Origin: a virus
Lineage: Duplodnaviria > Caudoviricetes
Virus record (IMG/VR): IMGVR_UViG_3300032004_000002
Span: 1 to 64,000 of that record
Strand: one strand, 5' to 3'
DNA: 64,000 nucleotides
Both the position numbers and the translations under genes were made by a program. This document shows positions 1,393 to 44,900 of the stretch, piece after piece. The notes beneath the pieces were generated by a model, which was not told the origin of the DNA, searched no databases, and was given only the letters and a program-made list of their open reading frames with translations. Positions within the stretch are counted from its first letter, which is position 1. The number at the start of each line of letters is the position of its first letter.

Positions 1393-3996
1393 TTAACTAG
1401 ACTTTGCTACAACAGCCCTCAGTGTACCTGACGCGAGGTCCAAGACTCCTCCGCTCTCGTTTTGAAGTCTTACAGAAACTGTGTTCGCAGCACTCACCCA
1501 CCCAGTTAGAGTAATACCTTGTAAGTCAAGGGAGAATGAAACACCAGAGACAAAATCGCCAAGAGCTGCCCCAGTAACAGTCACCGTGGTAGTTACACCT
1601 ACCCCATCAGCAAGAGATGGTGGGTCATAAGTAGCAGAGCCCGAAAGGTTTACCCTTCCAAACCCTTGAAATGTACCTGGAGTACCAGCACCCGATGTGC
1701 CGCTAACCGTGCATATCCCTCCCACATACCCGCCGGCTACGGCATTGATGAAACGGAATGTATCGCCTTGTTCATAGTCTCGATAATAGTACTGTGTAGG
1801 GGTGGTACTGGGCATAGAACCAGCAACTACACTCAAAGCACCACGTACAGGACTATGATTATTCAAAGGATCTGCAATTGTATTACCTGAGTACCCTTCT
1901 GTTACCGCGTGAAGGCCTACGGAATACCAATCAGTGCTAGCGGTTGTGGCACTAGCCAATGTGCTGCCCAGGAGTACTTGGGCGAAAGCAGCGCCTACAG
2001 GTGCGACTAACACGACAGTTTGCTGGGACGGAAGGGTAGACGTAGGCGAGGCTGTTGGTACAGGTGCACGGTTGATTGGACAAATTGTATTGGATATGTC
2101 CACAGATGAACTATTAAGCCATCGTACTCCGAAATGTACTGCAATTTGCCCAGCGCCTGTAGGGTAGTTTGCTGAAGTTATCGCCGTAAGCAAGTATTTA
2201 CCACCCGCCACTACCGGTACAGACTCACTTCTGATAGAGTCTGTACCCGAGACGTTAGTGGGGTTCATCCTCAGCCCTCTACCCGTAGATGTTGTAATAC
2301 CTGCATACCTCAGAGTGGGACCTAATGTGCTTGTATAAACCAGCCAATTTGAAGAGGGATCTGTTGCACTAACACTTACTAGATTCGGGTCTCTAATAAG
2401 ATTAGAACTAATACCAACCGAACCATTCAACTTAAGAGCCCCACCATAACAGCGACCAACACCGTCTGGTTTAGGAAGAATACTTACTATCCTACAGCCT
2501 ATGAATTCTATACCTGCCCCATCGTAGTAGAGTGTTTGGATATCACACTCTTCAACCAAGATGTTGTTGCACGAATTACCTGTAAAGGAGTTTTCTTGGG
2601 CAGAGAGGATAGATATCTTAGAATTACAGATTTTAACGCCGCGTACAGGAAGTGTGTCGTTGTTCGGCTCAATATTGATATTAAGTGCAGGCCCAGATGG
2701 ACTAATAATATTGATATTAGTGGAGCCTTCCAAAATAGCTATATCGTTTTGGCTATTGTTTTCAAAATAGCAGTTATCAAGAGTGATGTTATCAGCCCTT
2801 TTAAAATAGGTTCCCCATGCATTATTCAAATCAGGGGCTGCTGCATCTCGAAACCCCACAAAAGAGCATTTATACCAATAAGAGTTTACTCTGTCCTCAA
2901 AAGTAGTTCTAACGTTTGGAAGATTCGTTTCCAAACAATTTAGATATACACCTTCATATCTAGCGTTGCTACCAGCGGCAGCTAGTACAGTGGGACCACC
3001 AACAAGTTTAAACAAGTCAATACGAGCACCAAAAGCCCTAACGTTTTTATTATCGTAACCGAAGAACCAGTGCATTCTATAAGAAGCAGATGTTGGGGTA
3101 AATACGATAGTGGAACCATTTGGGGCAGAAGAAGCACAGGAAGCATATGCTGGCTGGTCGTTGGTCGTACCATCTCCTTTAGCCCCAAACTCTGTTGGGT
3201 AATATACCCCCCCAGAGTCCTGCATTACCCAACAACCCGTCCCAGAAGCATTGGGTGTGAACCATGCTTGTACATCTGCAAGTACTGTCCAATCTGTTGG
3301 GAAACTCTTGGTAGGGTCAATAATCGTCCCACCATTGTGTGTGGTTTTTGGTGTAGTTGCTGACCAATACCTAACTCGCCCACCACCAACTGTAGAACCA
3401 GTGTGATAGCCCGTAACTTGTACGAGGTAGTTGGTAGATGTTGCTGTGCTAAGCAATGCAGGAATCGACCCTACCACGAGCACAGAACTACCAACAATCC
3501 TTGAGCCAATTGTTGGATTGGCTAAGTTGGAAGCAAGGGTGTCAGTGTAATTTTGGTTTTGGGAGTTAGAGATATCCAGTGCTGCTTGGCTGGCAAAATA
3601 GCTAGTGTCCTCCATAGCTGCTGTCCCTAACTCAGAAAGAGTTAGCTCAACTGCGTCCAAACGTGTAGAAATGTCTGCTGGACTATCAATCTGCTCGGCG
3701 GTTGTGCCATTATATTGATAAGTTTGTCCTGTAGACTTAATTACAAACTCAAACCATTTAGGTGTCGGGCTTGAGTAAAAAGTACCCCCAACCGCAAAGT
3801 ACAACCTCTTATCTGTACTATTAAACCATGCTTGACCATTAACGACAGAGGGCAGTGTAGCAACAATACCATCCACATTTCTATCAAACATAAAAGAAAA
3901 CTTTACGAGATTATCATCCATTCCCGTATTCCAACCATTTTCTCCGTAATCCCAGCCGTATTTACCTTCCAAAAACGGACTTAGTTGTTGAGTCAT
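1393..3996 (-). CDS. tailspike / depolymerase with beta-helix (pectate-lyase-like) domain
   Basis: FGAKGDGTTND motif, beta-helix-like repeats and C-terminal beta-sandwich-like regions; position after the tail fibre. Confidence 0.8.
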   Translation of the reverse strand: MTQQLSPFLEGKYGWDYGENGWNTGMDDNLVKFSFMFDRNVDGIVATLPSVVNGQAWFNSTDKRLYFAVGGTFYSSPTPKWFEFVIKSTGQTYQYNGTTAEQIDSPADISTRLDAVELTLSELGTAAMEDTSYFASQAALDISNSQNQNYTDTLASNLANPTIGSRIVGSSVLVVGSIPALLSTATSTNYLVQVTGYHTGSTVGGGRVRYWSATTPKTTHNGGTIIDPTKSFPTDWTVLADVQAWFTPNASGTGCWVMQDSGGVYYPTEFGAKGDGTTNDQPAYASCASSAPNGSTIVFTPTSASYRMHWFFGYDNKNVRAFGARIDLFKLVGGPTVLAAAGSNARYEGVYLNCLETNLPNVRTTFEDRVNSYWYKCSFVGFRDAAAPDLNNAWGTYFKRADNITLDNCYFENNSQNDIAILEGSTNINIISPSGPALNINIEPNNDTLPVRGVKICNSKISILSAQENSFTGNSCNNILVEECDIQTLYYDGAGIEFIGCRIVSILPKPDGVGRCYGGALKLNGSVGISSNLIRDPNLVSVSATDPSSNWLVYTSTLGPTLRYAGITTSTGRGLRMNPTNVSGTDSIRSESVPVVAGGKYLLTAITSANYPTGAGQIAVHFGVRWLNSSSVDISNTICPINRAPVPTASPTSTLPSQQTVVLVAPVGAAFAQVLLGSTLASATTASTDWYSVGLHAVTEGYSGNTIADPLNNHSPVRGALSVVAGSMPSTTPTQYYYRDYEQGDTFRFINAVAGGYVGGICTVSGTSGAGTPGTFQGFGRVNLSGSATYDPPSLADGVGVTTTVTVTGAALGDFVSGVSFSLDLQGITLTGWVSAANTVSVRLQNESGGVLDLASGTLRAVVAKSS

Positions 3997-5681: not shown

Positions 5682-7127
5682 TTAAAGAACTGTGATTACA
5701 ATATTGTTTGGATCAAGAGAATACAGCTCGTCGAAAGCAATAGGAATGTTACCTACCCCTACAGGACTTGGACTTGTTCCGATAGTGAGGCTATTTACAT
5801 AGTGACCGGGCACCGCGTTGATCGGGGTGTAGATTCGACTATAGAGAATATCGTCTCCGATACCGAAAGTAGCTTTCATATAAGCAACAATATCATCTTT
5901 AATAACTTGTTCACCATCTTGTGGAAACAAACTATCAGTGGTGAGAGTCATGCTGATATAGATTGGTACAGGATCTGGCCTACTAAACCCAATGTCATGA
6001 GGAAAACCTTGACTATCTGTGATAGGAATAATAGTGTTTCCATAGCTTCTAATCCCAAGGGGTTTATTCTCCCAAATGGCACGAGCTACAGCAGAACTAA
6101 TACCACCTAATACAATAGGAAGAAAGCTATGGGCTGGTACACCATTAGAATCTACGATATCAGTGTCGTTCTCATAGATAACAACTTCTTCCACCCCATC
6201 AAGATTGATAAGAGCTGAATACAAAGCTTCAATGATGTTGGAAGCTCTTTCAAACTTACTTACTCGAAACCTTTCACGAAGTTCTTCATCTGTCTCAATG
6301 AATCGTCCTGCAATTGCAGATGTAGGGTTGGTTACACTATCCCATCCAAGTACAGGTGTGGTGATGGTATCAATTGTATTAGGATCTTGTGTGACAGGAC
6401 CATACTCTTGAGCTACCAAATCACCGATCTTTGTAACCTTACTGATCCCAAGATTAGCACTAGTTGTAAAACTAACTGTCTGGAAAATATCAGCTAAAGC
6501 TACATCAAGTCGTGTACCATTTACAGTGGCGATCAGACTAGGATGGCTTGCATCAATCTGAGCCTTCAATCCCGCAAGAATCTCTGCCGTTGTTGCAGAA
6601 GAATCAGAGGTAAAACTAATCGTTGTGTTAGACCCTGGCCTTGTGTAGGTAATGGTGTACAACGTGCTATTAGCTACAGTTGTCACAGTAAAACCAGCAC
6701 CAGATGCCAATGTAGGGGATAGTGCTACAGGGGATACGAGATTGAAACGATTATTAGTGGTGGATGAGCTAACTACAGATGTGATAGGGACAAGAACACC
6801 ATTATCACCTGTGAACAGAGCTTGTGCGGAGGTGTAAGTGTTTTGGAATCTGACTAGTCCACCAAGGGCAACAAGGTTGTCAAGGGCAATACCTGTTGCG
6901 GAGTTTGGATCAAACGCGGAATAAACTTGTTGTAGGGCTTCCCACAAATCTGCTTCACTGGGGGAGGCCAAGGCAATCAATCTGCCAAGAGCGGAGCTAT
7001 CGGAGGTATCAACTTGATCGTTTGGGAGTACAAGGTCTTGGAAAAGAGTTACAGCCAAAGCTCTCTTGGTAGCCAGTACTTCTGTAAGCCTCTTAATTAT
7101 AAGACCTTCTGCTGTAACGCCCGCCAT
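5682..7127 (-). CDS. baseplate J-like protein
   Basis: ATGIALDNL and GRFIETDEELRERF motifs typical of baseplate J. Confidence 0.85.
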   Translation of the reverse strand: MAGVTAEGLIIKRLTEVLATKRALAVTLFQDLVLPNDQVDTSDSSALGRLIALASPSEADLWEALQQVYSAFDPNSATGIALDNLVALGGLVRFQNTYTSAQALFTGDNGVLVPITSVVSSSTTNNRFNLVSPVALSPTLASGAGFTVTTVANSTLYTITYTRPGSNTTISFTSDSSATTAEILAGLKAQIDASHPSLIATVNGTRLDVALADIFQTVSFTTSANLGISKVTKIGDLVAQEYGPVTQDPNTIDTITTPVLGWDSVTNPTSAIAGRFIETDEELRERFRVSKFERASNIIEALYSALINLDGVEEVVIYENDTDIVDSNGVPAHSFLPIVLGGISSAVARAIWENKPLGIRSYGNTIIPITDSQGFPHDIGFSRPDPVPIYISMTLTTDSLFPQDGEQVIKDDIVAYMKATFGIGDDILYSRIYTPINAVPGHYVNSLTIGTSPSPVGVGNIPIAFDELYSLDPNNIVITVL

Positions 7128-7130
7128 ATT

Positions 7131-7490
7131 TTAAATTCCTATATCATTGATTGTAACGAGACTTACAGTTGCATCCTTACAACGAACTTTAAAAGTCAGC
7201 GAATATACTCGTGTTGTCGATGTTGTGAGGGTGGAGTTGAAACTTAAGAGTTCTGCAACACCGGGCTCAAGAAGTATCTGTTCCCTGAAGATATTATCTA
7301 CATCTTCTTTTTGTATCTTTTTTCCAAGAATCCTTTGAAGGTACGGTACGCCATAAACTGTGTTGAATTCCCACTCCGACAAAAAAGTTAATAGACGAAT
7401 CTTCAATCTTTGTGCAACTACGTCTACTCGTTCTTGTGTAACAGGACAACTTCCATTTACAAATACACAATCGTGAGTTAGAGGGTTCAA
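7131..7490 (-). CDS. baseplate wedge subunit (gp25-like)
   Basis: VAQRLKIRLLTFLSEW..YGVPY motif, 119 aa, upstream of baseplate J. Confidence 0.75.
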   Translation of the reverse strand: MNPLTHDCVFVNGSCPVTQERVDVVAQRLKIRLLTFLSEWEFNTVYGVPYLQRILGKKIQKEDVDNIFREQILLEPGVAELLSFNSTLTTSTTRVYSLTFKVRCKDATVSLVTINDIGI

Positions 7491-28156: not shown

Positions 28157-28576
28157 TTATTCACCATCATCTTCGTCATTAGGATCAATATATACTAGTG
28201 ACAATCGAGGTTTACTTTGTTCTGCTACTTCTTCTACGGTTGGTTCATCAATTTCAGCTTCGTCCCTTTTCCCTTTAAGACGTGCTTGAAAGTTACCAAG
28301 CTCATCTTGAGATGCAGAACGAGTCATTGTGACAATTGCTGAAAGCAACCACTTAGCACTTGAGAGACTTTCTGAGTTAACTTCCATCTCATTAAGACTG
28401 CGATCAACCAAAGCAATTGCTACATCTTCACGCTCTTGAAGTTTCTCGGCCAACTTACGAAGCTTGGATTTATTAACACGAACCTTACTATTTCCCTTCA
28501 AATTTTGGTTGGACTCTTCAGCACCAAACCTATTCTTAGGGCTAGGATTTCTATTTGTAGTTTTCTTAGTAGTCAT
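28157..28576 (-). CDS. hypothetical, possible terminase small subunit
   Basis: Basic NPSPKNRFG..NQN.KG N-terminus, helical core, acidic tail; upstream of the terminase operon. Confidence 0.4.
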   Translation of the reverse strand: MTTKKTTNRNPSPKNRFGAEESNQNLKGNSKVRVNKSKLRKLAEKLQEREDVAIALVDRSLNEMEVNSESLSSAKWLLSAIVTMTRSASQDELGNFQARLKGKRDEAEIDEPTVEEVAEQSKPRLSLVYIDPNDEDDGE

Positions 28577-28600
28577 GAGATTACCTATTTGTAAATAATA

Positions 28601-28790
28601 TTTCTTAAATACACTCTATTACAGAATGTCTGTGTTCACTACGTGAGGAATGTATTTAAGAAAGCTCACTTATCACGGGAGAGAACATAATAAGTGAGCG
28701 AATAACCAAACAATCCGAAGAGGAGGAGAGAAAAGATTGTTTGGTTAGGAAGACAAAGCTATGTTATAGAATTTCTACTTAGGCTTTGTC
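28601..28790 (-). repeat. array of four abutting perfect inverted repeats (13, 10, 13, 8 bp stems)
   Basis: 28601-613/28651-663; 28664-673/28690-699; 28703-715/28735-747; 28752-759/28783-790. Confidence 0.85.
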
Positions 28791-28798
28791 GGGAGAAA

Positions 28799-28884
28799 TG
28801 GTGGTTGAAGGAAGGAATTGAACCTCTAGCCTTGGCGCCGGATTTACAGTCCAGTGATAGTAGCCATCTATCTCTACATCAACC
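28799..28884 (-). tRNA. tRNA-Tyr(GUA), non-canonical
   Basis: Anticodon arm CUGGA-CUGUAAA-UCCGG, T-loop UUCAAUU, encoded ACCA end; 13-nt acceptor+T 3' strand. Confidence 0.75.
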
Positions 28885-29009
28885 AATAAATAATCCTAGC
28901 GTCTGCTAGGCTACGGCGAAGTACTACACTACCTCTCGCCCTGTCTTGCTCCGTGATTATCTCCATGATAATTCTGCACCGAAGACTTTATGTTCACGTT
29001 AAACACTAC

Positions 29010-29084
29010 AAGCCCTCAAGGGGAGACTCAATAAACTCCGTCAAGTTTAAGGAGTGGATTACCACTATCTACAACAAGGGGCTC
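29010..29084 (-). pseudogene. highly degenerate tRNA-like element
   Basis: 75 nt, GAGCCC/GGGCUU terminal stem, D-loop-like AGUGGUA, ACUCC/GGAGU stem; no T-loop. Confidence 0.3.
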
Positions 29085-29099
29085 AAAGGCCTATACACG

Positions 29100-29178
29100 A
29101 AAACAAGATGAAGGGTTCGAACCTTCGGATGCCTCAGTATTGGGTTTGCAGAACCCACTGCTTGCATTCTATCTGCGT
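29100..29178 (-). pseudogene. pseudo-tRNA (Cys/Ala-like anticodon arm)
   Basis: Perfect T-arm GAAGG-UUCGAAC-CCUUC, UGGGU-UCUGCAA-ACCCA arm; bulged acceptor, no CCA. Confidence 0.55.
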
Positions 29179-29314
29179 CAACAATAGTCCACTCTGTCAA
29201 TCATGTCTCGGAAATGACGCTGTAAAGTCGCCGTCATACTTTATTTGATGCTCAGAGATTTCAACTAAGCACATCAAATTCTTCCCAGCAATTTTCACTG
29301 TCTGACTCGGTATA

Positions 29315-29342
29315 ATTATAGCACCTTTCTAACCATTGTCAA
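29315..29342 (-). promoter_or_regulatory. strong sigma70 promoter TTGACA-16-TATAAT with TG extension, driving the RNA locus
   Basis: Consensus boxes directly upstream of the tRNA-like cluster. Confidence 0.8.
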
Positions 29343-29374
29343 GCAATTTGTAACAATAAACGTTATTTACTACA

Positions 29375-29548
29375 TTAATCTTCATAATCAGGCATTATTT
29401 TCTTAAATCGAGTACCGTAAAAGGAACAACCTTCATGTTGATACTCAAATCTAAACTTGCCTTCAATGATTTCATCTTCTAGCATTTCGTCACAATTACA
29501 GTCTTTATATTCATTGCCACAGGAAGGGCAATAGTACAATTCGCCCAT
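29375..29548 (-). CDS. small Cys-rich hypothetical protein (57 aa)
   Basis: Manual translation MGELYYCPSCGNEYKDCNC...; GGAG RBS. Confidence 0.55.
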   Translation of the reverse strand: MGELYYCPSCGNEYKDCNCDEMLEDEIIEGKFRFEYQHEGCSFYGTRFKKIMPDYED

Positions 29549-29621
29549 CTGTGGACTCCTTATTAGTTATCAATAAAAGAACTATAAACGACACACAGTG
29601 TTTCTGTCAAGCATTATTATT

Positions 29622-29906
29622 TTAAACTGTATTGTATCCACCAAATACAGAAGGAATACACCAATTATCTTTAATCATTTTCTGTTTCTTTGCATTCAAT
29701 ATCTTTTCTTCTGTCTTTAGTTTCTTACAGGAAATAGACTTCCACGGTTCGGGGCAACACCCTACACAGACACAAGAGTGCGGATTGAAATTAGGAAGGT
29801 ATCGTTCTTTACTTCCGCACTCTAGACAACCACGTTTGATATTGAAATGATTAGTTTTACTTTTTACCGCTTCTGCAATCGTCATTGTTGGTAGTTCATT
29901 GTTCAT
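29622..29906 (-). CDS. hypothetical Cys-rich protein
   Basis: CLEC..CVCVGCC; coupled to the polymerase-like gene. Confidence 0.55.
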   Translation of the reverse strand: MNNELPTMTIAEAVKSKTNHFNIKRGCLECGSKERYLPNFNPHSCVCVGCCPEPWKSISCKKLKTEEKILNAKKQKMIKDNWCIPSVFGGYNTV

Positions 29907-31264
29907 TTCTTATCAACCTTGCAAAAAGTTTTATCCCCTAGTACTGTTTCCCATGCTGCATACATGGCGTCTTCTAAATCTTTCTCAGCGCTAGCTTTAA
30001 CCAAGCAACTGTCATGATAAGCTAATACTGTATGCCCCTTGACCCCCATTGCACCAACAATACGCATCATGATCTTACTATCAATATTCTGCAACGTAAT
30101 ACCGGCATCAGAAAAGAAGTGCTCTGCAATAAAATCGTTATGACTTTGCACAGCCTCAAGTACTGCTGAATAATCTACATTACCAACCATTGCATAAAAC
30201 TCTTGATCTTCAATACTATTTTGAGCACGATCAATCTTTACTTTATTACCAAGTGTCCAAGCTGCGCTGTTCTTATCATTAGAATTCATACCAATCAAAA
30301 TAGCTAGCTTAGCTAACTGTCGTACTGGATTGTGTGTTTTACCTGTCACACTTTCCCACTGTTCTTTCAAACGACCATCAACTTTAATAAACGAAAGGTC
30401 TGCATTGTAAGGAGAGAAGTCATCCCCCATCACATCATAAATACTAAAGCCATCTGTATTGTACATAAGCTGATAGCAGATGCTTGGGTGAATTGCTGAA
30501 TAGTCCAACTCCACAACCGGTTCACCGTCAATCTTCAGAGATGATGCACGCACATGTTGTGGAAGAAGCTGCACACCACCACCAAGAGTATAGAGACGTC
30601 CACCACTATCCAAATCCCCACTAAAGATACGGCGGTATGCAACATCAGCAATCGGACGATCATCGAAAGTAATAGATGCACCAGCCAGCATATCATTCAT
30701 ACTCTTAACCTCACCTTTGATGTCTTTAAATCCTTTATGACCCCGTGTTGGAATCATCTCTTTTGTCTCACGATTACGAATGATAGCTAGGTCATTATCT
30801 TCAAGCTCTTTCCATAGGTTGTAATTTGTATTCACATCAGTCCACATGTCTGCTGTTCTCTTTTTAAATATCATACACGAAGGAATGGACTCATCTGGAA
30901 TAAGACTTCCTTTGTGCATCTTCCAAGACTTCACATAGCCTTTATAAAGATCAATGTAACCCTTTGACTCAAGGAAGTCAACAAGAGATTTAATCTTTCT
31001 GTACCCAATACCTTGTCTTGACTTAGTGTAAGCATGTATATCAAGACTGAAGATAAAGCCACCAGCATTCTTCTTCACTGCACGAGCAGAGTTAGACACC
31101 CACCATCTTACTGCTTCTTCCCATTTATAGTTGGTATGTTCTAATACCTGATCTACAATCTTCTTGTAGTACTTAGACTCATGGAAATAGATATAACTTC
31201 GTACACACCTTAGATTAACAGAGTAAGCTTGATGCTCTGTCATATTACTTAATTCATAGATCAA
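29903..31264 (-). CDS. minimal PolA/T7-RNAP-superfamily polymerase-like protein
   Basis: GGRLY, motif A ELDYSAIHP, motif B RQLAK, motif C YHDS in the correct order; TTG start with AAGGAG RBS. Confidence 0.7.
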   Translation of the reverse strand: MIYELSNMTEHQAYSVNLRCVRSYIYFHESKYYKKIVDQVLEHTNYKWEEAVRWWVSNSARAVKKNAGGFIFSLDIHAYTKSRQGIGYRKIKSLVDFLESKGYIDLYKGYVKSWKMHKGSLIPDESIPSCMIFKKRTADMWTDVNTNYNLWKELEDNDLAIIRNRETKEMIPTRGHKGFKDIKGEVKSMNDMLAGASITFDDRPIADVAYRRIFSGDLDSGGRLYTLGGGVQLLPQHVRASSLKIDGEPVVELDYSAIHPSICYQLMYNTDGFSIYDVMGDDFSPYNADLSFIKVDGRLKEQWESVTGKTHNPVRQLAKLAILIGMNSNDKNSAAWTLGNKVKIDRAQNSIEDQEFYAMVGNVDYSAVLEAVQSHNDFIAEHFFSDAGITLQNIDSKIMMRIVGAMGVKGHTVLAYHDSCLVKASAEKDLEDAMYAAWETVLGDKTFCKVDKK

Positions 31265-31577: not shown

Positions 31578-34500
31578 TTGAAGATGACATACGAAGAAAT
31601 GTATAAGGATTGGAAGTATTTGTGGGACATTGCACCAGCAAATGATATGACTGGTGGTTATGTAGATCAAGATGACTTGAAACGAATGCTCAAAAGTCCA
31701 TCCAAGGCCACAGCGAAGTATTGCCTTGAACGACAAATGGAATATTGGTTTCAGGCTGGCCCTGATGGGTTTGAAATTTGCAGGAACTATGAACATCTTT
31801 GTGAAGAGTATCCAAAAATTGAGCAGATCCGTAAGAAATATGATTTCAATGTAAGGGACTGGCTATGAAACAAATCCAAAACACCCCAAATGGCTGGATG
31901 GCCTACTGCTCAGCCATCAAAGAATCTGTACAAAGAGACTTGACGAAGCGTGACTATAGTGTGATGATGGCTTCGTATATTGGAAGGGTTAGTGTGGATG
32001 AGTGTGTTAGTCAATTGGAGAATAAATAATGACACACATTAAATCAGATTGGCACGAAGGTCTGCTTTGGGCTGAAGATCTTTGTAAGGATGGAGAAGGT
32101 TGGGGAGCAGTGCCTGTGAAGATTATGCTGTCCTATGTTGAAGATGCTTCTTGGAGTTTTGAAGATAGGGAATCTTTTATTGAAGGAGCATTCGATTATG
32201 CTGACCATATTTGGCACAGAGTTGAGGGGTAGATGATGAAACAGTGGAAGATTTATTTGATTGTTGCGATTATCTCCGGTTTTCTTGCAGGTGTGGTCAA
32301 ATACAACGATGACTATATGGTGGAAAAAGACGTACATGTAACATTTATAGATAAAATGGAAAGAAATAGCTGCCACAAGTCAAATTGCACAGGTAAGTTG
32401 TACGGACTGTTCAAGACAGATGATGGAATATTCTTTGACAGACAAATCAGCATGTATATGTACACACAAATGAAAGTAGGGGAAGACTTTAATCTAACTT
32501 TACGAAGGATGGACATTAAACAAACAGGCTGGGATAATGTGATTTATTTCTTTGGTGTCATAACCATGTCTATATTTGTTGTCATGCTCATTGCCTCCCC
32601 TTTAGCGTATTTTGTTTTGGATAAGGAGGATAATTGATATGAGCACCCTACGAGTAATTGAACGTAAACACGGAAAACACAAGGCTTGCTAAGAAAGCTG
32701 TAGAAATATAGCTCAAATTAGCCTATCAATCCCTTGTTTGATGCAAGAAATGATGTATAATTTCAACGTAAATTGAAAATGGAAGGCAGCACAAAGCTAT
32801 AGGAATGTTGCCCTATTTTGATGTGATAAAATCAACGGTAATTTATTAGGAGAGAATTATGAATGTAGGTGAGCTGAAGAAAATGCTTGAGAAATATCCA
32901 GACGAGATGGAAATTTTGAATGGTCGGTACAGTGATTATGATTTGGTTGAGGAAAATGAGTGGCACATTGTTAAGGCAGTTCCTAAAGATGGTTATGTAA
33001 TGCGCTCACATCCCACAATGAGCGAAGAGAACAAGAGTCAAGAAAAAGAATATCTTTACTTGGAAGGTAATTAAGATGAATAATCTCCCATTACTAAATG
33101 CAGAAGAACGTCAAGCACTCTTGGAAAAGGGTAGGCTTGCGAAGTTAGCCAAGAAAGAATTCGCCGAGGCTAATCTTAAATTGGACTATTCAGATGAGAA
33201 TTATTGGACCACCAAATCAGCAGAGCTTGGTATTCGATTACCGCAGAAGTTTGCTGTAGGAGCAAAAGGTATTCGTAAGACAGCTAAAGCACTTGGTGTA
33301 GATATAAAAGAGTTCCTAGATTCAACGGGCTGTAATAACTTGAATGAACTATGCGCGTTGAATCCGACTTGGAACTCAAGAGCACTTGCATCTTTAGTTG
33401 TGGAGTATTATCTTGACGTCCAATAAGGAATATGTAATCATTCAAGCACTACTTAGTCTATTCGGTAAAGTGGACTTACAGACTCCAAAGGATGTGCAGA
33501 TTATTAAAGAATTACATAAAATGCTTAAGGAGATTGAAGAATGAAACTAACCAGTAATCAAAAACAACTCAGCGTGTCAGTTCCAATGCTCATATTCTCT
33601 TTTATGGGGTTGTACTTGAGTTACCCAGCAATTTCACTGTCTTTAGTGCTATGGTTCCCGTTTATTGCTGGGATGGGATGGACTTCTGCAATTCTTGTTA
33701 TTCTTTTTAGTCAGTCAAAATTTGCAAAATGGCTTTTAAGGGATGACAAATGAACATCCAACAAATTGACTACATCAAAGCCCTCAACACAAAATATCCA
33801 TCAGGAACGCTTCAATACATTCTCCTGCAAAACAATTTGCAATCAGCAACATTTGAGGGTACATTGAAGTGGCTGCTTGAAAGGTATGTTGAGCATGTTG
33901 AGGAATACAAGGCTGAGAATGCTAGGATGGCTTTAGCATTGAAGAAGAACAACTTATACACATCAGAGAATGTTTTAGGAGAGTAACAGTGACAGATTTT
34001 AATGAGCTTGTAGGGATTACAGTGAATAGCCTGATTATCAACGATGATAAGACATGTCTAGTGTTTCGAAGTAATGAGAATGTATTGTATTTCTATGAAT
34101 CAGAGTTTGTAGAGATTCGTGGTGTAGATATGTTTGATGATAAATATGGGAACATTAATGGGTATGAGATTATTGGTACAGAATCTTTTGGTGATCATTA
34201 CTTGATTAACTTTAGGGAAGATTATTCATTGTCTGTCAAGAGTGGGACAGAGATTAAATGTGCAGGTGTGATCAATGAGAATGTGTTGAAAGATGCACAT
34301 AAGTTTAGTCAATTGGTTGAGGATTTTTAAACATGAGTCACATACTTCGTAATTCATTGTATGCGTTATATCGTAACGATCATGACATTCTGAATATGCT
34401 AGAGCAGCTGGATTTTAGCGAGCTTACTAGAAAATTTGATGACGAGCTGTACAGCCGTATGCCTAAAGAGCAAGTTAAGCTTGCCCAAGCAATGTTGACA

Positions 34501-41900: not shown

Positions 41901-44900
41901 TATTTGATCAGGAGAATGATGATGACTACAGAAGAACTTAAAAAGAAGAAAGCACAAAGCCTTAAAGCTCTAGAAAAGTATGAAAAACTTAAACAAGAGG
42001 TTAAGGATAACTGTCACCATCCAGAGGAGGAGACTATCTCAAGAGAAAGGTACTGGGAAGGAAGTTATAATGACAGGGCACACACTGTTTATTGGAATGA
42101 ATGTATGATTTGTGGTGTTCGTTCTGAAGAAACTGTTAAACAACACTCTTGGTATGGTTGAGGGGTATTTATGACTACTATATTTCTGCTCTACGAACAC
42201 TTCACTGGAACAATCAGTGGTCGAGATTCCACTTTGCTGGATATCTACACAGACTTCAAGAAAGCTGAAGATGCTCGTGTTGGATTGGAGTGTTACAAAG
42301 AACACGCATGGCTGTCGTACGAGGTAGTAGAATGGACGCTCAAGGATTAATCAGACAACTGTGTATTGATAATAATATCTCAGACACACAAGACGATATA
42401 AGTCGTATGGCTGTAAGGATTACACAAATGTGTGGAGAGTCCATCGAATATGGTACACTAGATTCTGTACAAAGATGTCTTGTAAATCTTGTTAGAAATA
42501 AAGTGATATCCATATCTGAAGCCATGCAATTACACGGAAAATATTTAGAGGAGAGAAGAAATGAATCTGGTGAAAGAACGACTATCATGGCACAAAGAGT
42601 TTGAGTGGGGTGGAACTCCTTGGTGGCCTATGTATGAAGAATACATAGAAAATCGTATGTCAGAGATGTGGCGTTCTTCTAGACCATCGGAAAGGTTCTT
42701 TGAATATGTCTATTGGTTGGAGGGGAAGGTAAATGATCAACAAAGAATTAGCTGAAAAACAACAACTAACACCAGATACAATCACAGCAATTGAAGTGTT
42801 GCACACACAACTTAAAGCTTTCCTTGCACGTCCTACGATGTATGTTGAAGAAAAAGATGCTGCAAGAATTGTTGAAGGAATGGAGTACACACTTCAATTC
42901 TTATGGGGTTTTCCACTTGATCGAAGTTTTCATAGGTATTACAATAAAGTTAAGGGGTGCCTGTGTAGGGCTGAGATGGATAACCTAGAGCTTTATGGTT
43001 CTGGTTATCGTGTGATTAATCCACAATGTCCATTTCATGGAGAACAGCATGACTAAAGTATACAACTACGACGAATACTTGTTAAAAGACTTCATCAAAT
43101 TCTGCTCAGATAAACACAAAGCTTGTATTGTTGAGTTCCCTAATGAATTCACACAAGATCAATATATTAATTACAGGTTTGTGAACAATAGCCATCTCAT
43201 TGAAGAGTTTTTGGCTTATCGGGAGGATGAGGAATGAGTGAATTAAAAAATGAGAATATTGGATTGATTATCGTAGCTTTGCTTGCTGTTATCATAGTAG
43301 GCGGAGTATTTATTGCAAAGACAATTATCAATAGACCAGATAATGACAAGAATATACAAGAAACCATAAAGTGTGAGAAGGCTGGTATGGTGGCAAGGCT
43401 TACACAAGGAGATTATATTGTTTGTACTCCTAAATCACAAAGACTGAGGTTTTTAGAATGAAACCACAAGTTCCAAAACCACCACCGATGAGAGCACTCA
43501 AGGGCTACGAGTGGGTTAATGAATGGGAACTTGTAGACTGGTATACAAATATGCAGATGCTTTATCCGCACCCGCAAAAGAAACTTAATTGGTTTGAGAA
43601 GTTGTTTAAGAAAGATTATCAAATTAAACTTGAACATAGTTTGACTAGGAATCGAATGATGTGTACGGAGTGGCCCAGATGAACAAAGACATACGTTACC
43701 TCCTACACGAGATGGTGAGCCATTTATATCTTGCACAATTAAAGCTCAATAAGCTTGAAGAGCTGGGATATAAACAACGTAATATGGACAGAGAGCTTGG
43801 GAATATTATTGATAGTGTTCTTGAGAGGATTGAGGTGATGGATAGTGGAGAAGTGGAATGACATACTACCAAGCTGTATACCAAACAGATTCACATGGAT
43901 TCAACACCGTGTATTCTAAGAATATCTGGAAGACTGAGGAGGAAGCTTTGGAATACTTGGATGAGATGAATAAGCTTATGCCTGGGTATATTTATTCAAG
44001 TTGGGTGGAAAGCTTATTTGTGGATGATGGGGAGTAGTGTATGTACACAGCAGATGATGTAAAGATTTATATTAATGGACATGAATTTACATGGGCTGAT
44101 GACGAACGTTTAAGCCTTGATAAACAAAAATCAATAACCCTAGACTGCTCAGAGGATTTCTGGGATACAGTATGGGGTGAAGATGTCACCAAAGAAAGAA
44201 AACGTTCTGAAAAACCTTGGTATAGAAAAGAGAGGTGGTGATGGGATATCAGAAATCAGGGTGGTTTGATGGGTTATTGTTTGCTGAATACCTGTCTGCT
44301 CAAGGTTGGACATTTGTATGTGTGAATGAATCAAAAGGATTAGCTGCTTGGAAGTGGGAGGATACAGATGGAATGCAGACAGTATTTGGAGAGGCTGAGT
44401 GGCTAGATGGGGTGAGGGATTACTATAAGAATATGAAGGAGATAATTTGACTTGAGCAAGAAAGAAATACCAGATTACACACAAGAACTACATGCACGGG
44501 TAGAAGCTAACGCTGATGCCCTTGTAGCTATTGGTGTTAAAGAATGGATGAGACAACGGAGGAAGAAAGCCAACATGACTGAACTAGAACAGAAAGAAGC
44601 TGTAAGAAAACTTGAGGAGAAACTAATAGATGACAAGGGGCCGTAAGCCTGTGGTGTTAGTGAACGACATCAAAGAAGAGTTCTGTGAACATTGGTATGG
44701 GAAGGATGAACCAGATACTTGGCCTGTGTGGATTGATGATATTGTGTCGGGTATTGCACGTCTAGATTGGTATGGGGATAAACCTAATCAAATACCACTG
44801 GCTACCACAAACATCATTAAATGCTTTATTTTCTTAGATGAAATATCCACTGATAATGTAATGAACCTTCTTGACCTTAAGAAGAGTCAAGCAAAGCTTT

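Follow-up and report, generated by a model that had tools for sequence, protein, structure and literature searches.

Conserved hairpins with CUCUCC loops form a predicted folded RNA in a clade of uncultured soil phages

The closest architecture described for the element reported here is that of the cuckoo/alpha-r14 small RNAs of Alphaproteobacteria (Rfam RF02344, ar14), which include NfeR1 of Sinorhizobium and CcsR1-4/RSs0680 of Rhodobacter. These RNAs consist of two to four adjacent hairpins that present one CU-rich loop motif on highly variable stems (PMC4615179), and NfeR1 uses its three motifs, redundantly, to pair with the translation start regions of targets and silence these (PMC10746234). 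The pyrimidine hairpin loops of the Firmicutes RNAs RNAIII, RsaE/RoxS, LhrC and SprX also pair with Shine-Dalgarno regions, in this case those of Gram-positive host mRNAs, and block ribosome loading; SprX, which is carried by converting phages, does so with a CU-rich loop (PMC4005690). Two small stable RNAs of T4, rnaC and rnaD (species 1 and 2), are encoded beside the phage tRNA genes in the same orientation. In the CsrB/RsmZ sponges, many copies of a short motif are distributed over the loops and linkers of a modular RNA. To our knowledge, trans-acting small-RNA regulation is known in few lytic phages.

Here we describe an element of four successive hairpins beside a tRNA gene of a phage. 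The IMG/VR record of this phage is 84.7 kb long and has terminal repeats; its first 64 kb, a stretch of 64,000 nt, is referred to as the window. Like the cuckoo RNAs, the element and its counterparts in related phages contain two to four adjacent anti-Shine-Dalgarno-like CU-loop hairpins, of which both the number and the stems vary. However, the loop word is CUCUCC(U) instead of the cuckoo motif CCUCCUCCC, the element resides in lytic-type phages beside tRNA genes, and it has additional parts, namely a 5' box, a first hairpin (H1) with AAAUUCUA and a last hairpin (H4) with a three-way junction. Searches of the whole window at the gathering threshold and of positions 28400-29700 at E-values up to 10 gave no match of the element to Rfam 15 or to the RF02344 covariance model. 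Membership in the cuckoo/alpha-r14 family was rejected on account of the lack of an Rfam match, the different loop word and the extra conserved parts, and homology is not visible; by analogy, the phage element would work on paper as the cuckoo RNAs do. In contrast to the Firmicutes RNAs, to which it is unrelated in sequence and architecture, its best-matched sites are in the phage's own genes. It shares its position beside tRNA genes, and its orientation, with T4 rnaC and rnaD, but the folded T4 region contained no pyrimidine-loop hairpins and no other resemblance, and these RNAs were dismissed as relatives. The repetition of a short motif in loops and linkers is that of CsrB/RsmZ, although the phage motif is the complement (CUCUCC, not GGA) on the transcribed strand. 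The literature searched described no phage RNA of the box/H1/CU-loop/H4 kind.

Hairpins, promoters and tRNA genes at the locus

The phage genome has a GC content of ~40%, and its large terminase is 47% identical to those of Pseudomonas Pakpunavirus phages. The sequencing runs that contain the stretch are rhizosphere and soil metagenome DNA, with no RNA runs among them. All genes at 1-31.3 kb, including those for terminase and portal, lie on the minus strand, and the interval 28577-29375 holds no credible ORF. The main features, in the direction of the minus strand, are as follows.

29903-31264, minus strand: gene for p453, a 453-aa protein of PHROG 4756 without a Pfam family
29581-29610, minus strand: second sigma-70-type promoter, 11/12 matches
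29315-29342, minus strand: sigma-70-type promoter (TTGACA, 16 nt, TATAAT, TG; 12/12 matches) feeding the RNA island
28799-28884, minus strand: atypical tRNA-Tyr(GUA) gene with encoded CCA, directly 5' of the element
28791-28798, minus strand: 5' box UUUCUCCC, the putative processed 5' end and first single-stranded pyrimidine patch
28752-28790, minus strand: H1, an 8-bp stem around a small inner hairpin with conserved AAAUUCUA, without a CU loop; closing inverted repeat 28752-28759/28783-28790, perfect over 8 bp
28703-28747, minus strand: H2, the first CU-loop hairpin, with 13 perfect pairs and one G-U; inverted repeat 28703-28715/28735-28747, perfect over 13 bp
28664-28699, minus strand: H3, the second CU-loop hairpin, terminator-like, with 14 pairs and the 8-nt loop UUCUCUCC; inverted repeat 28664-28673/28690-28699, perfect over 10 bp
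28654-28663, minus strand: U-tract UUUCUUAAAU, immediately 3' of H3, the same bases forming the 5' arm of H4
28601-28663, minus strand: H4, a three-way junction in which a 16-bp stem encloses two small inner hairpins; inverted repeat 28601-28613/28651-28663, a perfect 13-bp core found by direct reading of the sequence
28157-28576, minus strand: gene for p139, next downstream and the first gene ahead of the terminase/portal module
32848-32856, plus strand: example of a AGGAGAGAA ribosome-binding site, complementary to the H2 loop

Folding of the minus strand with RNAfold gave four successive hairpins of 8, 14, 14 and 16 pairs (G-U extensions included), separated by spacers of 4, 3 and 0 nt, at -70.3 kcal/mol. 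Dinucleotide shuffles gave -31.5 kcal/mol, and none of 200 equalled the energy of the native sequence (z -10.5). The plus strand folded more weakly (-61.6 kcal/mol, z -5.7). These results confirmed, in coordinates and in stems, the original prediction of four back-to-back hairpins at 28601-28790 that start 8 nt past the CCA end of a tRNA. The inverted-repeat search reported the fourth pair as 25-nt arms with 80% complementarity. The anti-Shine-Dalgarno-like loops ascribed to the hairpins were found in part: H2 and H3 have pyrimidine loops, whereas H1 and H4 do not. The H2 loop is 17 nt long (UUUCUCUCCUCCUCUUC) and includes CUCUCC. The window copy is a two-CU-module variant adjoining the tRNA-Tyr gene and measures 198 nt from the box to the end of H4, which lies 24 nt before the start codon of p139. 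H3 has the form of an intrinsic terminator, that is, a hairpin with G+C followed by a U-rich tract: 14 pairs, five of them G-C, precede the tail TTTCTTAAAT, and termination is predicted at this site.

Ahead of the structural module, the promoters at 29342 and 29610 are the only ones with at least 11/12 matches, and both face the RNA island. The structural module itself was scanned for strong sigma-70-type promoters and none was found. In the whole genome, promoters of this strength are restricted to 29-61 kb. Two small Cys-rich ORFs on the minus strand, of 57 and 94 aa (29375-29548 and 29622-29906), are located between the polymerase-like p453 gene and the RNA island; the 57-aa ORF is conserved in several relatives. 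The promoter-to-tRNA interval contains another structured ORF-free RNA stretch (28890-29095, minus strand) with a terminator-like hairpin at 28895-28910, and this stretch has the 12-mer GGAGCAAGACAG in common with the relative L003/L008 (L003 about 2560-2740). At 29095-29165 on the same strand, a degenerate tRNA-like element combines a hairpin resembling an anticodon arm with a perfect T-arm (GAAGG UUCGAAC CCUUC), after which comes a U-tract. The D-arm is missing and the acceptor stem is poor, and neither ARAGORN nor Rfam called the element.

The CCA of the tRNA-Tyr gene ends at 28799 and is followed by the 8 nt of the box and then by the first stem. With the Rfam tRNA model (RF00005) the gene scored 28.8 bits against a gathering score of 29, and it was not called by ARAGORN. 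It is 84-87% identical to tRNA-Tyr(GUA) of PhiPA3, Bruynoghevirus and Pakpunavirus, which ARAGORN does call, and comparison with the Pseudomonas-phage copies revealed compensatory changes in the acceptor and anticodon stems. Judged from these comparisons, the tRNA-Tyr-like gene is probably real though atypical. Copies of tRNA-Tyr(GUA) in other phages were located in L004 (2501-2587), L005 (1501-1587) and L006 (1501-1589). This tRNA is common to otherwise unrelated phages and is often missed or mislabelled in annotation: it is unannotated in JG004, labelled tRNA-Val in PhiPA3, and placed in WS1160 on the strand opposite to the ARAGORN call. Among the relatives examined, only the present phage has a tRNA-Tyr(GUA) of this kind. 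The Pakpunavirus, PhiPA3 and Bruynoghevirus loci were considered as carriers of the element and rejected; they have the tRNA-Tyr alone in common with the window, and no strong CU-loop hairpins were found in them. A horizontally spread tRNA-Tyr could counter tRNA-targeting host defences.

The element family in related phages

Relatives were gathered through homologs of p453 and p139 and by a DNA pattern scan of IMG/VR, which gave 65 hits, 21 of them with a downstream p139 homolog. The element was present in 26 related uncultured phage contigs, mostly of 85-92 kb. Twenty-five contigs were analyzed; in the 26th (L020), H2-H4 are essentially identical to those of the window. From 5' to 3', the family layout opens with the box and with H1, which contains the inner AAAUUCUA hairpin. 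A linker of pyrimidines leads to the CU-loop hairpins, two to four in number, and these are followed directly by the U-tract UUUCUUAA, which doubles as the 5' arm of H4; the ribosome-binding site of the next gene comes 20-30 nt after H4. The box follows the consensus (A/G)GUUUCACC, with the core UUUC(A/U)CC, and was found in 16 of the 18 pattern-found members, while the U-tract after the last CU hairpin was retained in every member. The element is ~200-250 nt long overall, and members with three CU hairpins measure 210-251 nt from the box to the end of H4. Upstream of it, in the same orientation, are genes for tRNA-Thr, -His, -Asn, -Met or -Tyr, which differ between phages; in L009, as in the window, the box comes straight after the CCA. 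The hairpins look like one modular element and not, as originally proposed, like four equivalent units of an array from which separate small RNAs are released.

In five of the 21 pattern-found members with a p139 homolog, 2-3.5 kb of inserted genes, an HNH endonuclease gene among them, part the element from p139, indicating that the element is not merely a leader of p139. In L002 (2309-3001) and L007 (about 2330-3000), the position directly upstream of p139 is taken by an inserted ORF; that of L002 is HNH homing endonuclease-like, and the hairpin element of this phage is found a further 3.5 kb upstream (L046). L011 (about 7090-7190) and L022 (about 7270-7370) carry, between H4 and the p139 homolog, a tRNA-like remnant with the T-loop GGUUCGAUUCC, which scored below the Rfam tRNA threshold. 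A candidate promoter just 5' of the box in L023 had 10/12 matches and was discarded, being not above shuffles.

When whole arrays were aligned with MAFFT and folded with RNAalifold, the base of H4 alone was recovered, and the terminator hairpins were aligned out of structural register. The case for selection consequently rests on alignment-free statistics. Folding was better than that of shuffles in all 25 arrays (z -3.7 to -9.9, median -5.9). In 11 of 12 arrays the sense strand out-folded the antisense strand, owing to the A-C mismatches that replace G-U pairs in the latter. The stems themselves drift: 45 distinct 5-nt closing arms were counted among 55 stems, with all Watson-Crick pair types and G-U at every position, and between phages the stem sequences are essentially unrelated. 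Among the stems, sequence conservation is confined to the base of H4, since the U-tract is needed there.

Covariation and loop conservation in relatives had been named as checks of the original prediction. In H4, 15 of the 23 consensus pairs show changes on both sides. Of the 71 loops, 57 contain CUCUCC; loop composition predicts 7.2, and the highest count in 2000 shuffles was 16, which supports selection on the loop sequence itself. The loops contain 767 pyrimidines (C 418, U 349) and 30 purines (A 26, G 4); the commonest is the 8-mer CCUCUCCU, and the variant CCCCCUCC occurs in the L003/L065 phage. The ribosomal core CCUCC was found in just 13 of the 71 loops, and the conserved word is accordingly CUCUCC, which corrects the earlier reading on this point.

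The better folding of the minus strand, the conserved U-tract and the tRNA context agree with the earlier assignment of function to this strand, and an RNA rather than a DNA-level element is favoured by the U-tract together with the promoters upstream and the tRNA genes in the same orientation. It is very likely that the locus holds a selected, structured element of the minus strand. The sequence evidence points to a conserved and uncatalogued folded RNA of a clade of uncultured soil phages with genomes of 85-92 kb.

Complementarity to ribosome-binding sites and a possible role in translation

The original prediction had matched a word of the first pyrimidine loop to the ribosome-binding sites at 32848, 37158 and 61047. 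This match was reproduced: UUCUCUCCU in the H2 loop is the complement of AGGAGAGAA, which is located 4-5 nt before start codons at these three positions and also at 42549 and 61698. The 9-mer occurs eight times in the window, whereas 0.69 occurrences are expected. The shorter word GGAGAG is found at the ribosome-binding site of 18 phage genes, of which 16 are on the plus strand and two are small minus-strand genes at 56-59 kb; none is structural. On the plus strand, non-structural genes mostly have strong (U)AGGAGA(G/A)A sites with short spacers, whereas the structural genes at 1-31 kb mostly have weaker AAGGA or UAGGA sites. The predicted duplex with the H2 loop has a mean energy of -10.4 kcal/mol at plus-strand starts, -6.9 kcal/mol at structural starts and -5.3 kcal/mol in the coding background, and several sites reach -20 to -25 kcal/mol. 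Five complete relatives have 10-19 GGAGAG sites before ATG each, compared with 2-7 for a control pattern.

These numbers are to be read with the general composition of the leaders in mind. After GGAG, the sites continue as GGAGAA in 30 cases, GGAGAG in 18 and GGAGAT in 11, and GGAGAG enrichment was therefore set aside as specific evidence, being no stronger than the general purine preference after GGAG. The statistics of pairing between loops and start regions are compatible with pairing but are weak and unspecific evidence for it, since any pyrimidine tract is predicted to bind purine-rich leaders. Complementarity to the sarcin-ricin loop (GAGAGG) was also put aside, because the conserved core CUCUCCU fits AGGAGAG better.

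The reading that we prefer, with a probability of roughly 40%, is that the element is a multivalent anti-Shine-Dalgarno-like small RNA or leader, which would damp translation. Host RNA polymerase would transcribe the minus strand from the consensus sigma-70-type promoters, within the island of RNA genes. The 5' end would be freed at the UUUC(A/U)CC box by tRNA 3' processing or by RNase E, and most transcripts would stop at the last CU-loop hairpin and UUUCUUAA. The resulting RNA would be ~140 nt long here, and relatives that have three CU-loop hairpins would make one of 170-200 nt. In read-through products, H4 would be kept and would give the next gene a structured 5' UTR. Such an RNA would display four to six single-stranded pyrimidine patches, namely the box, the linker between H1 and H2, and two to four CUCUCC(U) loops. 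These patches would most likely pair with purine-rich Shine-Dalgarno regions of the GGAGAG type and block ribosome binding. The best-matched targets would be the phage's own non-structural genes, and structural genes, with weaker AGGA-type sites, would largely escape. The long stems that close 8-nt loops limit full pairing.

This mechanism may be extended to a temporal switch, in which accumulating CUCUCC patches would sequester the strong GGAGAG-type starts of non-structural genes and leave the weak AGGA-type starts of structural genes translatable. If the RNA is transcribed early, from promoters of the host type, it would encounter early and middle mRNAs at once, and a temporal switch thus needs extra assumptions; we consider such a switch doubtful.

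Other readings of the element and their implications

The CUCUCC loops, the box and the linker may instead be binding sites of a pyrimidine-specific RNA-binding protein, with the RNA serving to titrate or recruit it. Candidate binders are ribosomal protein S1, Era (which binds the 16S 3' tail) or a similar KH-domain factor, Rho and cold-shock proteins. A CsrB/RsmZ sponge is likewise built from variable stems, with one short motif recurring in the loops and linkers; the phage motif is conserved far beyond what composition predicts, and the length of exactly 8 nt of the commonest loop suggests a fixed recognition unit. Yet no bacterial or phage protein that recognises CUCUCC loops could be named. 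A possible phage binder is p139, a helical protein whose N-terminal tail is basic and conserved and whose C-terminal tail is acidic. PHROGs, Pfam, NCBIfam, a PDB sequence search and an AlphaFold model (pLDDT 70) searched with Foldseek yielded no functional assignment for p139, and proposals of a small terminase or an RNA-binding protein were dropped for lack of any family or fold match. Moreover, the element persists apart from p139, and the cuckoo RNAs, its closest architectural analogue, use base pairing (PMC10746234). We regard protein binding as rather unlikely.

The hairpins may also serve as punctuation in cis, that is, as stacked terminators, processing sites or stabilisers with loops that have no function in trans. 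In that case they would keep early transcription by the host polymerase from reaching the late structural genes, and would shape the late mRNA at its 5' end. The location suits this role, with the element lying exactly between the sole strong sigma-70-type promoters on that side and the promoter-poor structural module; H3 with its U-tract is terminator-like, H4 covaries close to the p139 start codon, and long perfect stems are plausible substrates of RNase III. What punctuation in cis does not need is a conserved loop word, yet CUCUCC is kept while the stems drift. Similarly, the U-tract follows the last CU hairpin only, yet two to four CU hairpins are retained, and the 5' box and the linkers are pyrimidine-rich as well. 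We regard this explanation as unlikely.

A signal at the DNA level was considered in connection with p453. In this case the hairpins would form in single-stranded or supercoiled DNA, with the C/T loops as priming or origin sites of p453, or they would be hairpin promoters or packaging signals. The predicted fold of p453 is that of a minimal A-family polymerase without an exonuclease domain (pLDDT 92; Foldseek probability 1.0, E 1e-6). D254, R315, K319 and the H417-D418 pair are invariant, and residues like those of motifs A, B and C are conserved. On the basis of this model, p453 may be a primase-polymerase of the TV-Pol/CCPol kind, and the related CCPol-MP primase-polymerase starts on template pyrimidines and has its origin downstream of its own operon (PMC7581432). 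The p453 gene lies 1-3 kb upstream of the element wherever both were seen. However, homologs of p453 are also found in Vibrio ICP1, Aeromonas and Rheinheimera phages, which have no p139 homolog, and within a single clade the co-occurrence of p453 with the element amounts to ordinary synteny. An RNA is the better fit to the conserved U-tract, to the tRNA genes in the same orientation and to the promoters upstream, and the G-U pairs favour one strand. A DNA-level function is very improbable.

The remaining idea, a plus-strand decoy of CsrA/RsmA with GGA-containing loops, is extremely unlikely: the loops do read GGAGAG or AGGA on the plus strand, but GGA is found on that strand only and not in the loops of the transcribed strand, the best plus-strand promoter has 9/12 matches and is not convincing, the plus strand, which has no U-tract, gives the poorer fold in 11 of 12 arrays, and every neighbouring gene and tRNA lies on the minus strand. 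Rsm decoys on the plus strand, DNA cruciforms and hairpin promoters had been the alternatives offered with the original prediction, and the strand asymmetry, the conserved U-tract and the tRNA context disfavour them; even jointly, the DNA-level and plus-strand readings appear quite improbable. The original interpretation as a whole is partly supported.

No RNA in Rfam has the layout described here. If the loops bind a protein, the RNA would provide a handle for finding a pyrimidine-loop-binding factor. If the preferred anti-Shine-Dalgarno pairing holds, the element would be a modular, conserved RNA with exposed bases that are the mirror image of ribosome-binding sites in the phage itself, and phages would have independently reached the multi-hairpin design of the alphaproteobacterial cuckoo RNAs. 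The temporal switch, if true, would be an RNA counterpart of the shut-off of early translation by T4 RegA/RegB, widespread in a clade of uncultured phages. Pairing of this kind would give these phages a simple RNA means of partitioning translation between gene classes.
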